From the NCBI GenBank assembly GCA_012512325.1, contig JAAZEL010000061.1:1-60664 (forward strand): a stretch of DNA of 60,664 nt, read 5' to 3'. The notes beneath the pieces were generated by a model. The model saw only the letters and a program-made list of their open reading frames with translations, was not told where the DNA came from and ran no database searches. This document shows, in pieces, positions 11,731 through 60,642 of this stretch. Origin of the DNA: Candidatus Fermentithermobacillaceae bacterium (lineage in GTDB: Bacteria > Bacillota > Sulfobacillia > Fermentithermobacillales > Fermentithermobacillaceae). The stretch's first letter is position 1. Each line of letters starts with the position of its first letter. The translations under genes were made by a program, and so were the position numbers.

Positions 11731-13089
11731 TCATCCCAATTTCAGTATTCTGGTCGCCACTGCAAAGTAGATTATGAGGCCGGTGGTATCCACAATCGTG
11801 GTAATAAGAGGAGCAGAAAGCACAGCCGGGTCCACCCCGAACCGGCTGCCAATCAAAGGCAACACCGCCCCGATGGTCGAACTCACAATCATGATGACCA
11901 CGAGGGTTATACCTACCGTAAGTGCAACTGCCTGGGAACCACCGACCACCCACGAAAAAGTGAAGCCCACGGTGCCCATGACCAAGCCCAGTGCTCCACC
12001 GATTCTGACTTCTTTCCAAAGAATGCTGGCCAGATCTTTGAGAGTCACTTCGCCTAGAGCCATCGCCCTGATGACCAGGGTCGAAGCTTGGGAACCTGAG
12101 TTTCCGCCTGTGTCAGTCAGCAAGGGAATGAAGAATGTGAGCGCCACTACTTGTGCAAGCACATCTTCATAGCTCTTCAGAATGTTCCCAGTAAACCCCT
12201 GGCCCATGAACAACACCAAGAGCCAGCCGATCCTCTTCTTAATGAGGTCAAACATACTCGAGTTCAGGTACGGTTCGTCCAGCGGCAAGCTTCCGCCCAA
12301 CCTGTGGATGTCTTCGGTGTCTTCTTCTTCGATGACGTCCAAGATATCATCTACTGCGATGACACCTACGAGACGTCCCGTATTGTCTGTTACCGGAAGG
12401 GCCACAAAATCGTAGCTGCTCACCAACTTCGCCGCTTCTTGTTGATGCGCCTCCACAGGTACCGACACAACCTTGGTGTACATAATGTCTGAAACGAGCG
12501 TTCTAGGATCGCTCAGCAGCACTTCCTTGAGAGAAGTCACCCCGACCAGCCGCCCTTGACCGTCAACCACGTAGATATAGTTGGTAACAGTTGCTTTACT
12601 GCCTACCTTCCGAAAATGATTGATCACCCGATTGACGTTCCAATCTTCCCTTACCGCGATGTAATCAAGGGTCATGATGCCGCCGGCAGAATCGGCCGGA
12701 TATGTCATGAGGAGTTTGATGCCTGCGATGTCTTCCTTGGGAACCCGCCTTAGGATTTCTTGAGCTTGACGCGGGTGGATAGCCAGGAGCAAGTCCGCGA
12801 CGGCGTCATCGGACATGCGCGCCAACAAATCCCGGGTAACTTGGTCCGCCGAATGATCCAGCAAGCTGTATTGGTCGTCGTAATCCAGATGTTCCAGTGT
12901 CTCTGCGGCGATGTCAGGATCCGACAGGGCCAGTATCTTAAGCCGGTCCGGTTCTTCAAACTCCATCAGCACCGTGGCGATGTCGAAGGGCTGCAATTCA
13001 TGGAGCAACTCCATGAGCTTATCGTCATCCGCAGCCGAGAGCAGATCTTGGATAGTCTGTTTCAGGGAACCGTTGACCAAGTGCTTCAA
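11731..13089 (-). CDS. mgtE: Magnesium transporter MgtE
   Basis: N-domain, CBS pair (SAGGIMT, GRLVGVI) and DTGGNSGSQ, VDPAVLSAPLITT...D motifs. The SD supports TTG 13089. Confidence 0.94.
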   Translation of the reverse strand: MKHLVNGSLKQTIQDLLSAADDDKLMELLHELQPFDIATVLMEFEEPDRLKILALSDPDIAAETLEHLDYDDQYSLLDHSADQVTRDLLARMSDDAVADLLLAIHPRQAQEILRRVPKEDIAGIKLLMTYPADSAGGIMTLDYIAVREDWNVNRVINHFRKVGSKATVTNYIYVVDGQGRLVGVTSLKEVLLSDPRTLVSDIMYTKVVSVPVEAHQQEAAKLVSSYDFVALPVTDNTGRLVGVIAVDDILDVIEEEDTEDIHRLGGSLPLDEPYLNSSMFDLIKKRIGWLLVLFMGQGFTGNILKSYEDVLAQVVALTFFIPLLTDTGGNSGSQASTLVIRAMALGEVTLKDLASILWKEVRIGGALGLVMGTVGFTFSWVVGGSQAVALTVGITLVVIMIVSSTIGAVLPLIGSRFGVDPAVLSAPLITTIVDTTGLIIYFAVATRILKLG

Positions 13090-30537: not shown

Positions 30538-30729
30538 AGGTAACAGCGGAATCCGCTGAAGGTGGCCGGCGCATTTTCTCTGTCCGCTTACAGGGTGACA
30601 ATATCACTGGCCGGTAGCAGAAGGCAATTCAGCGGTTGCATATTCTTACGAGTGTGGTTATAATAGTCGTCAATATTCCGGAGTTGCTTGTTGTCTTGAG
30701 CTATCAGGGAAGAGTATCTTAGGGTTCCG

Positions 30730-30927
30730 CGTTGGTTTCGGTGTGACACGGCTGCGGGTTGGGCGGTCCGGTTAACAAGCGGCCCGACCAACGGCAGACA
30801 CAAACCGGTGCAACGGTCTGGTCCGAGCGATACAGCTTTGCATTTAGAATGCAAAGTACACCGTGGGTAGAAAAGGCCCGTGCGGCAAGTTCCTTGAGAA
30901 GTTGCGATGGAACTGCCCACGGGTCTT
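30730..30927 (+). other. Two long imperfect hairpins in the leader of the NSS transporter
   Basis: Hairpins at 30730-30815 and 30873-30927 (AAGGCCCGTG.GGCA.GTTCC / GGAACTGCCCACGGGTCTT). Confidence 0.45.
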
Positions 30928-30981: not shown

Positions 30982-32373
30982 ATGGCAATAGCTGACAGAG
31001 CAGACGCTGTACCAACTAAAGGCGCAGTGTCGCGGGACATTTTCACCACGAGACTCGGCGTTATCGCTGCTACTCTTGGGTCGGCGGTAGGCTTGGGGAA
31101 TATCTGGAAGTTCCCGTACCTCACAGGAGCCAACGGCGGGGCGGCATTCATAATAATATACCTGCTCTGCACCTTGGTAGTGGGCCTCCCGGTCATGATT
31201 ACCGAACATATGATAGGCCGGGCGGCAAGAGAAGATGCCATAGCGACCCTTAAGAAACTGGCACCGGGAAAAAGCTGGTGGTTGATAGGAGCTTCAGGAA
31301 TACTCGCTGCGTTCCTCATAATGGCTTTCTACACTGAAGTTGCTGCATGGGTTTTTGCTTATATCGTCAAAGCCGTACAAGGTGCCGTGTTATCAACTGA
31401 TCCTGCGGTAACCGAAGCGGCTTTTGCCGAGCTTATTACAAGCCCTGTCCAATCACTGGTGTGGCAATGGGTAGTGTTGGCATTTATAGCGTCAATCATA
31501 GCACTTGGCGTGTCAAAAGGCATCGAGCGCATGACCAAACGGCTTATGCCGGCGCTTTTCACTATCCTGGTTATCGTATGCATTAGGAGCATTACCCTGC
31601 CCGGATCATGGCAAGGACTTGAATTTCTCCTCAAACCGGATTTTTCAAAGGTAACGGGTGCCACCGTCCTCACTGCAATGGGACTGGCTTTTTTTAAACT
31701 GTCTGTGGGCATGGGCACCATGATCACGTACGGAAGTTACTTCTTGGAGGACCAGGACCTCCCTGCAACAGCAACACGGGTCATGCTTTCAGACCTTGCG
31801 GTTTCGTTCCTTTGTGGGTTGGCCATCTTCCCCGCCGTATTTGCCTTTGGTTTTCAGCCTGAGTCAGGTCCCTCCCTGCTGTTCATCACAATTCCGGCAG
31901 TGTTTAGTTCCATGCCTTTTGGCCAGATATTCATGATTCTCTTCTTTATCCTGGCAGCCATAGCTGCAACAGGCGCCATGTTGTCCCTGTTTGAGGTGCC
32001 TGTCGCGTACCTTGAGGGCACGTTGAACTGGAGCAGAAAAAAGGCTACCGTGGCCGTACTGGTAGGCTTGGCGCTGGTGGGCTCGACGGCTGCCCTGTCA
32101 AACAGCTTGCTTGCACATGTTGTATTCCCTGGAGTAGGTACGTTCTTCGACTTGTGGGACTACCTCACATCCAACATATTGCTGCCGCTAGGAGGCCTGT
32201 TCTTGAGCCTGTTCGCCGGACGGGTCCTGAAGTGGGATAACATAAAGACCTGGCTGACAAACAAAAGTACCCTGCAAAATGAAGGGGCAGCCCGGGCATT
32301 CTACTTCGTAGTCAGGTTTGTTACACCCGTCTTGATATTCATAATCCTGCTTTCAGGGCTTAACGTGTTCTAG
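30982..32373 (+). CDS. Sodium-dependent transporter, NSS/SNF family
   Basis: GSAVGLGNIWKFPY, FFKLSVGMG...TYGSY and GPSLLFITIP motifs. Confidence 0.94.
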   Translation: MAIADRADAVPTKGAVSRDIFTTRLGVIAATLGSAVGLGNIWKFPYLTGANGGAAFIIIYLLCTLVVGLPVMITEHMIGRAAREDAIATLKKLAPGKSWWLIGASGILAAFLIMAFYTEVAAWVFAYIVKAVQGAVLSTDPAVTEAAFAELITSPVQSLVWQWVVLAFIASIIALGVSKGIERMTKRLMPALFTILVIVCIRSITLPGSWQGLEFLLKPDFSKVTGATVLTAMGLAFFKLSVGMGTMITYGSYFLEDQDLPATATRVMLSDLAVSFLCGLAIFPAVFAFGFQPESGPSLLFITIPAVFSSMPFGQIFMILFFILAAIAATGAMLSLFEVPVAYLEGTLNWSRKKATVAVLVGLALVGSTAALSNSLLAHVVFPGVGTFFDLWDYLTSNILLPLGGLFLSLFAGRVLKWDNIKTWLTNKSTLQNEGAARAFYFVVRFVTPVLIFIILLSGLNVF

Positions 32374-45594: not shown

Positions 45595-46197
45595 CTATCC
45601 CTTCAGCACAGGCGATAAGCGTTTGTAAACCAACACCGCCACCACAGATGCAGCCAGGCCTTTCAGCAAGTTGAACGGTACTATGGAAAACAGGAGCAAG
45701 GCTGTGTAATCCGCCACCAGCCCGTTGCCCGCGCTTGCCAGGCTTACCAACGTATCTCTGTCTATGCCGAAGACCTTGCCGTACAGCGGAAACATCACAA
45801 AGTGGTTGTTGAGGGTCGCAAACACGGTCATTGAAATCACTCCTAACCCCAACCCTAACAGCGCACCTTTGAATGTCCGGTTTCTCTTGTAGACCCAACC
45901 GGCGGTATATGCCATGACACTGCCCACCAGAAAATTGGTAAGCTCCCCGATTCCATTGGTGACGGTACCTTCAACCACCACATTGAGGAGATTCTTGATA
46001 AGCGGTACCCATATACCCGTCACCGGGCCCATGGCGAAAGCACCTAGCAATGACGGTACGTCAGCGATATCCAGTTTCAAGAACGGAAGGGTGAACCACA
46101 CAGGCGTCTTGAAGAAGGTGAGTACGAAAGAAATCACGCCAAGCACCGAGATCTTAACCAGAGTGTGTACCGTCCAAACTTGTTTTTCCCGAGTCAT
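45595..46197 (-). CDS. ribU: ECF S-component, riboflavin transporter RibU
   Basis: FLKLDIADVPSLLGAFAMGP and GIGELTNF motifs; lies downstream of an FMN riboswitch. Confidence 0.9.
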   Translation of the reverse strand: MTREKQVWTVHTLVKISVLGVISFVLTFFKTPVWFTLPFLKLDIADVPSLLGAFAMGPVTGIWVPLIKNLLNVVVEGTVTNGIGELTNFLVGSVMAYTAGWVYKRNRTFKGALLGLGLGVISMTVFATLNNHFVMFPLYGKVFGIDRDTLVSLASAGNGLVADYTALLLFSIVPFNLLKGLAASVVAVLVYKRLSPVLKG

Positions 46198-46268: not shown

Positions 46269-46290
46269 GTTAATGCCCAGATAACCTCTT

Positions 46291-46406
46291 GTATCTTCTC
46301 CCATCCAGACTGTTACCGTCGGCCCTGGAATTCCACCAGGTCAACCGGTTTTTCGGCTCGCGGGCTTTTACCGCCGGTGAGGAATTGCACCTCGCCCCGA
46401 AGATAC
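46291..46406 (-). ncRNA. FMN riboswitch (RFN element)
   Basis: Minus strand GTATCTTCGGGGCGAGGTGCAATTCCTCACCGGCGGTAAAAGCCCGCGAGC...GGAATTCCAGGGCCGACGGTAACAGTCTGGATGGGAGAAGATAC. Confidence 0.97.
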
Positions 46407-46454
46407 ATCCATCCTTATCATTGTGAGCTTACATGCACCCGGAAGTCAAGGGCA

Positions 46455-47882: not shown

Positions 47883-48087
47883 ATAAGACACCTCCATACG
47901 AAGACTTTGCGGTACATGGGTATTAAGCTGTTCGGTCACCGCCGGCTGTCCACAACCGGCGCATCGAAACAACTTTATCCGTCGAACTATACCACGATAC
48001 CGGACCCGTACAAGTTCCTGTGCATGCCAAGTGATTTTGCTGCAGACCCTTTACTTTCCTGCCGTAACCTGATATATTCTTCGAAAG

Positions 48088-48352
48088 CCAATGATGGGGA
48101 CAGGTAACCCGCTGTAAGGCCCAGAGAGTCGCCGGCCGGTGAAAGGCGATGCCACAAAGCGGGTGATAGCACCCTTGAGGCGTCGGCACAAAGGGCAGTG
48201 CGTTAACGCCACAGCCTGAGTATGCTGGACCGGCTCCCTCCGTTATCCGGGATAGAGGCTTTGGGTATGCCAGCTCAGTGGCAGACCCAGGGCAAACCAA
48301 GGTGGCACCGCGGGCAGGCGTGTCTCGTCCTTGAGACGGCCTGCCTTTTTGT
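48088..48352 (+). ncRNA. T-box riboswitch, Ser (specifier AGC)
   Basis: Stem I with AG box (CAGAGAG) and GGTGAAA loop; specifier AGC at 48168-48170; T-box AAGGTGGCACCGCG at 48299-48312; terminator GGCAGGC...GCCTGCC plus T-run. Confidence 0.92.
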
Positions 48353-48376: not shown

Positions 48377-49645
48377 ATGTTCGATGTGGCATTAATCCGT
48401 AATGACCGCAAGGCTGTCGAGGAGATGCTGGCCAAACGGAACACAGACGCACCGCTGGATACCATCCTCTCCCTTGACGACAAGAGGCTGGAGCTCGTCA
48501 GACACATTAACACCCTGCGCGAGCAAAGAAACAAGGTTACAGAGCAGATCCCGGCCTGCCAAGATCCTGAAGAGAAACAATCCCTAATAGGGTCTAACCG
48601 CAAACTCCGCCAGCAGATCCTGGGCTTGGAAGAAGAGCTACGTGGCGTAGAACATGAGCTGCGAGAGTTGATCCTCAGAGTACCGAACATGATAGCACCT
48701 GACGTGCCCTACGGCGAAGACGAATCGGGCAATGTGGAAATCAAGAGATGGGGCGAACCCAGGGATTTCGGTTTTGAGCCCTTGGACCACGCTGAACTAG
48801 GAGCCCGTCTGGGGCTTATAGACATTCCCAGAGCGACGAAAATCATGGGGTCCAGGAGCTATGTGCTTACAGGCGACGCCGTTTACCTTGAGTTCGCCTT
48901 GGTAAGGTTTGCCCTTGACCTGCTGTCAGCGGAAGGGTTTACCCCGGTGATCCCGCCTGTGTTAGCCAAGGAAGAAGTGCTGGTGGGAACCAGACATTAT
49001 CCCTTCTTCAGAGATCAGGTATATAGAATCGAAGGGGAAAACCTAGGGCTGGTGGGGACGTCTGAGATTCCCTTGGCTGCACTGCACAAAGATGAAATCC
49101 TGTCAGAGGAACAGCTGCCCATCAAGTACGCAGGGTTTTCGTCGTGCTTCAGGACCGAGGTGGGTAGCGGCGGCAGGGACATCAGGGGACTCATCCGGGT
49201 CCACCAGTTCGACAAGGTTGAGATGTTCGTATTCTCGGAGCCGTCCAGGTCTGACGAGATGCACGAGTATATGCTCTCACTGGAAGAACGAATCTACCAG
49301 TCACTCAACATACCCTACCGGATAATGAAAATGTGTTCCGGGGACCTGGGTCCTATCGCTTACAAGAAGTATGACATCGAGTTCTGGCACCCGTCAGAGC
49401 GTGTATACCGGGAAATCACATCGTGCAGCAACTGTACTGACTTCCAGGCAAGGGGACTAAACATAAGATGCCGCCCTCAAGGCGGGGGTAAGCCCCAGTT
49501 CGTACACACATTGAACGGAACGGCCATTGCCATAGGCAGAACCCTGGTTGCCATCCTTGAAAACTATCAGGAAGAGGACGGGAGCATTACCGTGCCTGAA
49601 GTGCTGCGGCCGCACATGCCCGGCAATAAGGCACGGATTGGGTGA
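48377..49645 (+). CDS. serS: Seryl-tRNA synthetase
   Basis: VGTSEIPL, CFRTEVG, GLIRVHQFDKVE, EITSCSNCTDFQAR and HTLNGT motifs. Confidence 0.97.
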   Translation: MFDVALIRNDRKAVEEMLAKRNTDAPLDTILSLDDKRLELVRHINTLREQRNKVTEQIPACQDPEEKQSLIGSNRKLRQQILGLEEELRGVEHELRELILRVPNMIAPDVPYGEDESGNVEIKRWGEPRDFGFEPLDHAELGARLGLIDIPRATKIMGSRSYVLTGDAVYLEFALVRFALDLLSAEGFTPVIPPVLAKEEVLVGTRHYPFFRDQVYRIEGENLGLVGTSEIPLAALHKDEILSEEQLPIKYAGFSSCFRTEVGSGGRDIRGLIRVHQFDKVEMFVFSEPSRSDEMHEYMLSLEERIYQSLNIPYRIMKMCSGDLGPIAYKKYDIEFWHPSERVYREITSCSNCTDFQARGLNIRCRPQGGGKPQFVHTLNGTAIAIGRTLVAILENYQEEDGSITVPEVLRPHMPGNKARIG

Positions 49646-50712: not shown

Positions 50713-51372
50713 CTACTGGATCACTGTAACCCACAATACATCATCCAGCGCAGCTAACCGATCTATAACCTCAGGTCGGATTCTCTGGTCAGTCTCCGGC
50801 ACGCTGGTCGCCACATCACGCTTCGCCACCCGGGAAAACCGCATGAGCCCGATATTGATGTTGTTTTCCGCGAGCACCCGGCTGATTCGGGCGATGACCC
50901 CGGGCTTGTCCAGCTGCTGCATGATGAGGGTTGGCTGTTCTGCCGACACTTCGACATTGACGCTGTTGATCTTAGTGATCAAGATCCGGCCTCCGCCCAC
51001 GCTGCATCCGACAATTTGAGTTGACGTGCCATCATGGTGGTCAAATGTGATCACCGCAGTGTTCTCGTGAACGTCATCCAGCTCCACTTCGTGGAAAGCG
51101 TAAGTGATGCCCCGCTCCTCAGCGATGTCAGGGCTGAGTTTTATCCTTTCGTCCTCTTCGGTAATGCCCAGCACTCCGGCGAGGAGTGCCAGATGAGTGC
51201 CGTGGCCTGTTCCGGTCTTGGCAAAAGAACCGTGCAAACCGAAGTCAACGTGTTTGAACGGCTTGCCCGCTATGAGGGCAGACACTCTTGCCAACTTGAC
51301 TGCGCCAGCGGTATGGCTGGAACTGGGGCCTATCATTATGGGCCCGATGACGTCGAAAATGCTGATGTTCAA
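50713..51372 (-). CDS. sdaAB: L-serine dehydratase beta subunit with ACT domain
   Basis: SIFDVIGPIMIGPSSSHTAGA, GSFAKTGTGHGT and DKPGVIA motifs. Confidence 0.95.
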   Translation of the reverse strand: MNISIFDVIGPIMIGPSSSHTAGAVKLARVSALIAGKPFKHVDFGLHGSFAKTGTGHGTHLALLAGVLGITEEDERIKLSPDIAEERGITYAFHEVELDDVHENTAVITFDHHDGTSTQIVGCSVGGGRILITKINSVNVEVSAEQPTLIMQQLDKPGVIARISRVLAENNINIGLMRFSRVAKRDVATSVPETDQRIRPEVIDRLAALDDVLWVTVIQ

Positions 51373-58170: not shown

Positions 58171-59115
58171 ATGACTGGAACAAGCGGTTCAGGGACTGAC
58201 GGAAGAGGATACTGCACTGAGATCATGAACAGAGAAGGACTGAGTGTTCACAGGTTGACGCTCCCGGCACCTGCGCCTGGTTTTGCCAACTTCATCACCC
58301 CGTGGGTGCTTCAAACCAAGCGCACTACCTTACTCCTAGACCCAGGCCCTTCTTCTACAATCCCTTACCTCGTGGAACTCCTGGAGGAGCAGGGAGTGGA
58401 CGTTATAGACTTTGTGCTCCTCACCCATGTACATATTGATCATTCAGGCGGCATAGGAGATCTCATATCCCTTTTTCCAGGGGCCAAGGTAATAAGTCAT
58501 CCCAGGTCGTTCAAGCATCTCATTGACCCCGGCAAGCTTTGGGCGGGGAGTCTTGAGGTTCTCGGCGACTTAGCCAATCGGTACGGACCTATCAGACCCA
58601 TTCCTGAGAAGGCATTGTTGCAAACTTCCCCAGGAATTGTCCCTGGATTGAGTGTAATTGATACGCCTGGACACTCTTCCCACCATCAATCCTATCTCTA
58701 TACTGATCGGGGCACCAAATTGTTGTTTGCCGGGGAAGCTGCAGGCGTGTACCTGGGTGATAACTACATCAGGCCGGCCACTCCGCCCCGGTTCTTCTTT
58801 GACGTGGCATATGAATCCCTTCAGAAGCTGATTTCCCTTGAACCTACCATCATATGTTACGGGCATTATGGGTTTACCGATGATCCCACATGGCTTGAGA
58901 AGGCCGCCCTGCAAATGGTGCTGTGGAGACAAGTACTGGATGAAGCGATTACAGAACAACCTGATATCAACGCTGAACAAGCCTTAGTACTCTTGGAGCA
59001 ACACGATCCGTACCTAAAGCGTCGCCATAGATTTGATGACCAAGTAGCGTCAAGGGAACGCTGCTTCCTTGAAAACAGCGTTCGAGGGTTCCTGCAATAC
59101 CTCGTCGACGAGTGA
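58171..59115 (+). CDS. MBL-fold metallo-hydrolase
   Basis: LLDPG, THVHIDHSGG (HxHxDH), TPGHSSHH, FAGE and ICYGHYG motifs. Confidence 0.92.
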   Translation: MTGTSGSGTDGRGYCTEIMNREGLSVHRLTLPAPAPGFANFITPWVLQTKRTTLLLDPGPSSTIPYLVELLEEQGVDVIDFVLLTHVHIDHSGGIGDLISLFPGAKVISHPRSFKHLIDPGKLWAGSLEVLGDLANRYGPIRPIPEKALLQTSPGIVPGLSVIDTPGHSSHHQSYLYTDRGTKLLFAGEAAGVYLGDNYIRPATPPRFFFDVAYESLQKLISLEPTIICYGHYGFTDDPTWLEKAALQMVLWRQVLDEAITEQPDINAEQALVLLEQHDPYLKRRHRFDDQVASRERCFLENSVRGFLQYLVDE

Positions 59116-59266: not shown

Positions 59267-60178
59267 TCACTGCTCAAGGTGTTCTTGCAGCGCTTGGTAG
59301 ACCTCCACTGCCGGACGGGCCAAGAGAAAGTCAGGACCGATGACGTACGGCGTTATTCCGCTGAAAAACGCGACAATCTTCCCGGATTGCATAACAGGAC
59401 TCCCGCTCATACCGGGGCCGACCTCCACGTCATCATCAAGCAGTTGTAAAACAAGAAAATGGCCATCCTTCAACGTGGTAAACCCCATGACCTCAACCCG
59501 GATATCTCCTGTGCTCAATGTGCGGATGACCGCTTCTTCTCCAACCTTTATATCTTCTTCCCCTGCGAGTGGAATCGCCTTGCGGTCAGGTTCGGGGCAT
59601 TTCACTTTCTCAATAGCCACCCCCTCTTGGACATCAGCCAACCCCCGTACTTTAGGAGACGGCCCCGCGGGCAAAGCTTCGCTGTCTTCGGTAAGATCAA
59701 GAACGTCGCCGGCTTCTAATCCGCACGAGTGAGCGGCGATAGCGCAGAGGTCATCATCAGGGACATAAAAGCACACGGTTACCCATGACCTTCTCAGTTC
59801 TATGGAGGTGCGCTGTTCAACCAGGGCCGACCATTTGAACAGTTCCCCGCCGGGAACAACTGAAACCTCCAGCGTAGGCAGAGGCTGAAGGGGCCTTTCA
59901 GAAATCATTTCGTAGGCGAACAAGTCTCCTCCAAGTGTATAAACGCACACGCCCATCATCACAACGAAGGCAAGTACCGGCACCCACCAGCGCCTGTGGA
60001 GGGTATAGGCACAATAGCAGAAGAGACCTACGAGAACTGTCAAACGGTGTCCCACTCTTAGGAACTCAAAGGGCAGCACGAACACGGCTGCAACGCACAA
60101 GAGCATCGTCACTCCAGCGGTTATCTTCTTCGCCTTAGGCGAAATCCGGCCGACCAGCCTGTCTGCTTGATCAGACAT
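59267..60178 (-). CDS. Membrane-anchored SpoIVB/S55-type serine peptidase lacking PDZ
   Basis: Three N-terminal TM helices; TVCFYVPDDDLCAIAAH, AIPLAGEEDIKVGEEAVIRT and GMSGSPVMQSGKIV align with SpoIVB motifs. Confidence 0.75.
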   Translation of the reverse strand: MSDQADRLVGRISPKAKKITAGVTMLLCVAAVFVLPFEFLRVGHRLTVLVGLFCYCAYTLHRRWWVPVLAFVVMMGVCVYTLGGDLFAYEMISERPLQPLPTLEVSVVPGGELFKWSALVEQRTSIELRRSWVTVCFYVPDDDLCAIAAHSCGLEAGDVLDLTEDSEALPAGPSPKVRGLADVQEGVAIEKVKCPEPDRKAIPLAGEEDIKVGEEAVIRTLSTGDIRVEVMGFTTLKDGHFLVLQLLDDDVEVGPGMSGSPVMQSGKIVAFFSGITPYVIGPDFLLARPAVEVYQALQEHLEQ

Positions 60179-60385
60179 ACATGATCACCCTTTGTACAAG
60201 GAAAATGCCTTCTTGCGATGGCATATTATGTTTATTGGAGCTGATTCGTCACGCTTTCGGCGGGTTCTTTTTCCATCCGGGGATTGTGCCTCCCCCACCA
60301 GGAGTCCGGCCTGGATTTGATCAGTCTACACCATCCCATGGGTCGAAGGCATTGCGGGAAGTCTTTGCTGGAGCAGTGAGTCTGA

Positions 60386-60462
60386 TGGTGGGCGGTGAGG
60401 GACTTGAACCCCCGGCCTCTTGCATGGCAAGCAAGCGCTCTGACCAACTGAGCTAACCGCCC
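60386..60462 (-). tRNA. tRNA with anticodon GCC (Gly) on a tRNA-Val(GAC)-type body
   Basis: Full cloverleaf GGGCGGT/ACCGCCC, A73, CCA; anticodon arm CTTGC-TTGCCAT-GCAAG. Confidence 0.9.
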
Positions 60463-60469
60463 GCATCGC

Positions 60470-60543
<74 letters not shown>

Positions 60544-60567: not shown

Positions 60568-60642
60568 TGGAGCGGAAGACGGGATTTGAACCCGCGGCCC
60601 TCGCCTTGGCAAGGCGATGCTCTACCACTGAGCTACTTCCGC
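60568..60642 (-). tRNA. tRNA-Gly(GCC)
   Basis: GCGGAAGTAGCTCAGTGGTAGAGCATCGCCTTGCCAAGGCGA...TTCCGCTCCA; canonical C2:G71 and U73. Confidence 0.97.

Follow-up and report, generated by a model that had tools for sequence, protein, structure and literature searches.

A tRNA gene at 60386..60462 on the minus strand, near one end of the window (the whole stretch of 60,664 nt analysed here, contig JAAZEL010000061.1 of a Candidatus Fermentithermobacillaceae bacterium), joins a valine-type body to the anticodon GCC, which belongs to glycine. The question is whether this organism carries a hybrid tRNA. A hybrid that proved to be a stable trait would bear on the evolution of the genetic code and of tRNA families, as a rare natural case in which one anticodon change reassigns or mis-wires a bacterial tRNA. 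The evidence set out below gives a different answer: what the species has at this locus is an ordinary tRNA-Val(GAC) and no hybrid. The single-base change seen in this assembly is probably an artefact; if it is not, it is an isolated mutation that probably disabled the gene. The window has a GC content of 54% and encodes proteins with SLH and Germane domains, together with a T-box leader. Its PurA belongs to a 90%-identity cluster named after Candidatus Fermentithermobacillaceae / Bacillota. All sequencing runs that contain the sequence were anaerobic digester, biogas or bioreactor metagenomes.

ARAGORN called the gene Gly(gcc), with a length of 77 nt that includes an encoded CCA. The Rfam tRNA model (RF00005) matched 60386-60462 over its full length with 73.1 bits (E 3e-16), and the molecule is thus predicted to fold as a canonical cloverleaf. 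The minus-strand sequence is GGGCGGUUAGCUCAGUUGGUCAGAGCGCUUGCUUGCCAUGCAAGAGGCCGGGGGUUCAAGUCCCUCACCGCCCACCA. By direct reading, the acceptor stem opens with the pairs G1:C72, G2:C71 and G3:C70, and the discriminator is A73. The anticodon loop consists of U32, U33, G34, C35, C36, A37 and U38 (UU-GCC-AU), and its middle anticodon base, C35, lies at window position 60427, which is G on the plus strand. A preliminary description of the locus had listed the G1-G2-G3 acceptor, A73, the UU-GCC-AU loop and the assignment of position 35 to 60427, and all of these are present in the sequence.

The main determinants of valine identity are A35 and A73, to which C36, G45 and the G3:C70 region contribute, whereas glycine identity in bacteria depends on U73, G1:C72, C2:G71, C35 and C36 (PMC9976931). 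The focal tRNA has the A73 and the regular acceptor helix with G3:C70 that belong to Val(GAC) tRNAs. It also has C36, but position 35 is occupied by C, where all orthologues have A. With Gly(GCC) tRNAs it shares G1:C72, C35 and C36, but it carries A73 in place of U73 and G2:C71 in place of C2:G71. The GlyRS of A. pernix does not need the discriminator, and alpha2 GlyRS enzymes often pair with A73 (PMC9976931; PMC3990555).

The gene is part of a tRNA array. Its next neighbour upstream is tRNA-Cys(GCA) at 60470..60543 on the minus strand (ARAGORN; 67.8 bits in Rfam), in the same order as in the JGI 3300064082 contig and in GCA_050952145.1. A canonical tRNA-Gly(GCC) with G1:C72, C2:G71, G3:C70 and U73 follows at 60568..60642, also on the minus strand (ARAGORN; 75.8 bits). 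The preliminary description had placed such a gene, with C2:G71 and U73, about 100 nt away, and we located it 105 nt upstream. Alignment of the focal tRNA with this Gly(GCC) of the same genome gave an identity of just 60%. In the JGI 3300064082 contig and in GCA_050952145.1, ARAGORN recovered the whole array in the order Val(UAC)-Asp(GUC)-Phe(GAA)-Gly(GCC)-Cys(GCA)-Val(GAC). Val(GAC) is the last gene of this conserved array and the sole GAC-type gene in it. The tRNA-Val(UAC) is located just past the end of the window, ~ 210 nt upstream (12673-12747 in the JGI 3300064082 contig), and the acceptor stem GGGCG/CGCCC-A is common to it and the focal tRNA. An Rfam match to YrlA across the Cys/Val junction scored 19 bits against a gathering score of 69 and was discarded as tRNA-like noise.

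Beside the tRNA lies an ORF of 303 aa (59267..60178, minus strand), to which no function was assigned, and the gene of an MBL-fold hydrolase (58171-59115) is found 1.3 kb from the tRNA. These two and a LysM protein form the neighbourhood of the focal gene, and no second synthetase isoform stands beside it. Within 12 kb, aminoacyl-tRNA synthetases are represented by a single gene, the T-box-regulated serS (48377-49645), 11 kb from the tRNA. Its T-box leader was identified at 48082-48335 on the plus strand with 98 bits.

Conspecific contigs were found by a protein look-up with the product of the MBL-fold hydrolase gene. Three conspecific assemblies reach the tRNA, namely the 105-kb JGI contig (3300064082), GCA_050952145.1 from NCBI, and the Logan contig SRR28714083, and their identity to the window was 99.89-99.92%. 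ARAGORN called the orthologous gene Val(gac) in all three, and the flanks and the position in the array were the same. In a base-by-base comparison, the focal tRNA matched the conspecific Val(GAC) at 76 of 77 positions, and the sole difference was 60427, which is G in the window and T in the others. GCC in the window and GAC in the three assemblies occupy the same locus, an arrangement also seen in alloacceptor anticodon shifts. Judged by sequence and gene order, the focal gene is the orthologue of the ordinary tRNA-Val(GAC) of the species with one base changed. This assignment follows from the array position, the near-complete identity, the stem shared with Val(UAC), an anticodon arm that occurs in Val(GAC) tRNAs, and the low identity to Gly(GCC). 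The preliminary description had regarded the gene as one base away from tRNA-Val(GAC), and the comparison bears this out. It had also proposed a check of relatives, which returned T at 60427, and hence a GAC anticodon, in every other assembly or contig set of the species covering the site (three assemblies and 14 Logan runs).

The 14 public runs with Logan contigs over the site come from at least 10 studies of anaerobic digester, bioreactor and sludge metagenomes; all had T and none had G, and three further runs had no contig over the site. In three Logan runs (X1, X14 and X18), the T was found on contigs anchored in the unique flank of the organism. A 61-nt query, in which all 31-mers contain the G at 60427, was found in no indexed run, and two soil runs each returned just one of four sampled words of it. 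The GCC form of this anticodon arm did not occur in 185,579 species representative genomes. In the same genomes, a scan for the arm with C, G or U at position 35 gave two matches, both with GGC, and six viral tRNAs with the same anticodon arm were all Val(GAC). A scan of JGI metagenome contigs for the arm with a base other than A35 was also empty; it weighs little, because a control pattern made of the species flank with N at the site was equally empty, and the locus is thus absent from that collection. Exact look-ups of two proteins with window-private alleles (303 aa and 178 aa) gave no match. Inheritance of GCC was therefore seen in none of the three conspecific assemblies, the 14 Logan runs, the species genomes or the indexed runs, and the other 76 of the 77 nt of the focal tRNA contain no co-varying change at an identity position. 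G at 60427 is private to this assembly, and it is the only change within the tRNA.

One of the two GGC matches is a true tRNA-Ala with G3:U70, the universal alanine mark. The isolate Heliophilum fasciatum DSM 11170 carries a tRNA with the anticodon GGC (NZ_SLXT01000031.1, 1149-1225, plus strand; GGACAAU...AUUGUCC-A-CCA), which lies 5 nt after a tRNA-Arg(CCG). It has A3:U70 instead of G3:U70, and its anticodon arm is that of Val(GAC) tRNAs. This molecule is either a Val-type body with A35 changed to G, or an Ala tRNA without G3:U70.

Private alleles of the window were scored over 16.5-60.5 kb against the JGI 3300064082 contig and four runs. About 12 such alleles were found in 44 kb, and the window represents a distinct strain. 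Transitions account for 8 of the 12 sites, and the sites divide into four synonymous, five non-synonymous and three non-coding; this spectrum looks like that of natural strain SNPs. A rare allele of the window, 20385-T, was also present in two runs (X31 and X32), whose contigs do not span 59400-60430. At private site 59643, codon 179 of the 303-aa ORF is changed from GTG (Val) to GGG (Gly). Here the window has C, whereas all eight other loci and all four runs compared have A, i.e., the Val codon, and the 61-mers of the C form were found in no indexed run. A link between this substitution and the tRNA was considered and rejected, because the anticodon GCC reads GGC and GGU, not GGG.

Sites 59643 and 60427 are the only two private transversions of the T-to-G type, and both are located in the last 1,022 nt of the window, while the other 10 private sites are spread over 43 kb. 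The Poisson probability of this clustering is ~ 0.02, calculated post hoc, and the concentration of T-to-G changes near the end of the window is only suggestive as an error signature. T/G differences occur also among shared, clearly real polymorphisms (17336, 35098, 53186 and 59665), and for that reason the signature is not a clean one. We must also note the gene of SDH_beta-ACT (serine dehydratase beta/ACT, 50713-51372, 219 aa), which is whole in the window and in a related contig. JGI 3300064082 and GCA_050952145.1 are without one G at window position 51131 (~ 2962 in their own numbering), which splits the gene into two ORFs. This 1-bp deletion is likely a frameshift error or a pseudogene in those assemblies.

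The window contains further RNA elements. An FMN riboswitch (46289-46408, minus strand, 119 bits) precedes the gene of an ECF-transporter S component (45595-46197), and private site 46317 falls inside its aptamer. At 30707-30886 on the plus strand, ahead of the gene (30982-32373) of an SNF-family transporter, we found an aptamer similar to Guanidine-I (ykkC), with 44.4 bits (E 8e-7), which is under the gathering score of 63. One of its stem-loops carries an insertion of 76 nt. The Logan depth of this region was 4-13x that of the genome, and one run (X10) had a form without 73 nt (30737-30811). The element may be a subtype or a variant of ykkC.

The position of the changed base deserves attention. 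Site 60427 is 238 nt from the end of the window, which stops inside the tRNA array, and Logan contigs break there too. In the Logan graphs, an 80-nt unitig (60385-60464) had 3-4x the depth of this organism and was joined to several flanks. In the graphs of many digester runs, the identical tRNA-Val(GAC) sequence (60384-60464) continued into three or more distinct 3′ flanks. This depth and these flanks indicate that tRNA-Val(GAC) is shared among co-resident genomes; as read from the graphs, several of them carry it without a single difference, which makes it a repeat across genomes where contigs end. In consequence, the site is hard for an assembler, and the sequence of the tRNA is under very strong constraint.

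We consider it somewhat probable that G at 60427 is an artefact of consensus calling or assembly, confined to this one contig, with its presumed origin in sequencing or assembly. Either a miscalled base in the contig or a wrong branch taken through the short repeat would produce the G, and the gene of the species itself would then be Val(GAC) with A35, C35 being no property of the organism. A chimeric join with the tRNA of another organism was rejected as the sole cause, since the difference amounts to one base only and a tRNA of this sequence was found in no run. More generally, a simple chimeric join cannot give a one-base difference unless reads with the exact sequence existed, which speaks against part of the artefact reading. 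The window is also good sequence otherwise, and it keeps SDH_beta-ACT whole where two relatives have the 1-bp deletion. Moreover, its other ~ 10 private alleles have the appearance of natural strain SNPs, which makes a real private SNP a reasonable alternative. The preliminary description had counted a single-base error among its options, and this is the one we favour; a one-off mutation of the strain, which it did not list separately, is the other that we retain.

The readings in which the G is real and private to the strain must be taken seriously as a group, although we place them on the improbable side. If the G is real, the likeliest outcome is that the predicted tRNA is charged well by neither ValRS nor GlyRS, being a very poor substrate for the former without A35 and a poor one for a bacterial form of the latter without U73 and C2:G71. 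It would then remain mostly uncharged and act as a null allele of Val(GAC), with GUC and GUU read by Val(UAC); we regard this particular reading as possible but rather doubtful. The loss of A35, a valine determinant, and the absence of U73 and C2:G71 from the glycine set agree with it (PMC9976931). So does the standing of the window as a distinct strain with a natural-looking spectrum of private alleles, in which non-synonymous changes (five) and synonymous changes (four) would be those of close strains not yet purged of mildly harmful mutations. Val(UAC), in the same array, could cover GUC and GUU. Bacillus subtilis is not known to have a Val(GAC) gene, and its Val(UAC) tRNA reads all four valine codons. 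The preliminary description had cautioned that the decoding of GUC and GUU must rely on another tRNA if this gene replaces the only Val(GAC). The concern is less serious, because Val(UAC) belongs to the same array. Nevertheless, the G variant is missing from all other assemblies, contig sets and indexed runs, and the tRNA is otherwise so constrained that its sequence is identical in several different digester genomes. Codon usage, counted over 14,098 codons of the genes of the window, also weighs against a null allele. GUC and GUU make up 41% of the valine codons, and their loss should be costly, and whatever valylation remained would insert Val at GGC and GGU, which make up 54% of the glycine codons.

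That the changed gene yields a working tRNA, charged with glycine or weakly with valine, is improbable even when the two cases are taken together. In the former, which we hold to be very unlikely, the gene would be an alloacceptor shift at its first step, a spare tRNA-Gly(GCC) charged by a GlyRS that is perhaps of the alpha2 type and tolerant of A73. The bases C35, C36, G1:C72 and G3:C70 are available to GlyRS, some enzymes of this kind need no discriminator (PMC9976931; PMC3990555), and eukaryotes offer documented examples of anticodon shifts at syntenic loci (PMC3923123). However, C2:G71 and U73 are both missing, with G2:C71 in place of the former, and the U73 of the genome's own tRNA-Gly points to a GlyRS that reads U73. 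The tRNA carries no second change, the variant is fixed in no other genome, and with a canonical Gly(GCC) nearby the shift would cost the organism Val(GAC) and gain it nothing.

In the latter case, the least probable of all, the molecule would still be charged with valine and would act as a missense tRNA inserting Val at GGC and GGU. It retains A73, C36, G3:C70 and G45, i.e., all valine determinants but A35, and bacteria are known to have tRNAs dedicated to mistranslation, for example tRNAProX of Streptomyces (PMC10404621). Nevertheless, no other valine determinant is as strong as the missing A35 (PMC9976931). No partner synthetase gene is found nearby (serS, at its distance of 11 kb, has an ordinary T-box), and no other genome conserves the variant. 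As GGC and GGU amount to 4.7% of all codons (664/14,098), damage across the whole proteome would be heavy. The preliminary description had also allowed for an alloacceptor shift, a regulatory tRNA or a missense tRNA; these found no support. The variant lacks conservation, none of the other identity positions changed along with it, and it has no partner enzyme. Were the G real and the tRNA charged, we would be dealing with a wild bacterial tRNA that changes codon family by one mutation.

For genome scans, the case suggests that a tRNA whose isotype and anticodon disagree in just one metagenomic contig should be compared with conspecific assemblies before it is interpreted. This applies especially near the ends of contigs and in tRNAs that are shared by co-resident genomes.

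Among known systems, tRNAProX and ProRSx of Streptomyces and Kitasatospora resemble the focal tRNA in combining the body of one family with the anticodon of another (PMC10404621). In contrast to the focal tRNA, which is not conserved across genomes and has no synthetase isoform adjacent to it, tRNAProX is conserved in many genomes, usually lies beside a special synthetase isoform, and has been shown to be charged (PMC10404621). The alloacceptor anticodon shifts reported by Rogers & Griffiths-Jones (2014, PMC3923123) are alike in that the anticodon of a syntenic orthologue has been substituted for one of a different codon family. Inheritance across genomes is a defining property of these shifts as well as of the mistranslating tRNAs. 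Documented shifts of this type are, however, fixed in a species or clade and often come with co-varying changes or after duplication (PMC3923123), whereas the present one is found in one contig, with no other change and with no sign of a spare parental copy in the array. Bacterial tRNA-Gly(GCC) shares the anticodon GCC, G1:C72 and G3:C70, but the focal tRNA differs from it in having A73 rather than U73 and G2:C71 rather than C2:G71, and it is orthologous to no Gly tRNA. With bacterial tRNA-Val(GAC) it agrees in the cloverleaf, A73, G3:C70, C36, G45, the length of 77 nt with CCA and the position in the array, and it differs at position 35, where this single assembly has C for A.
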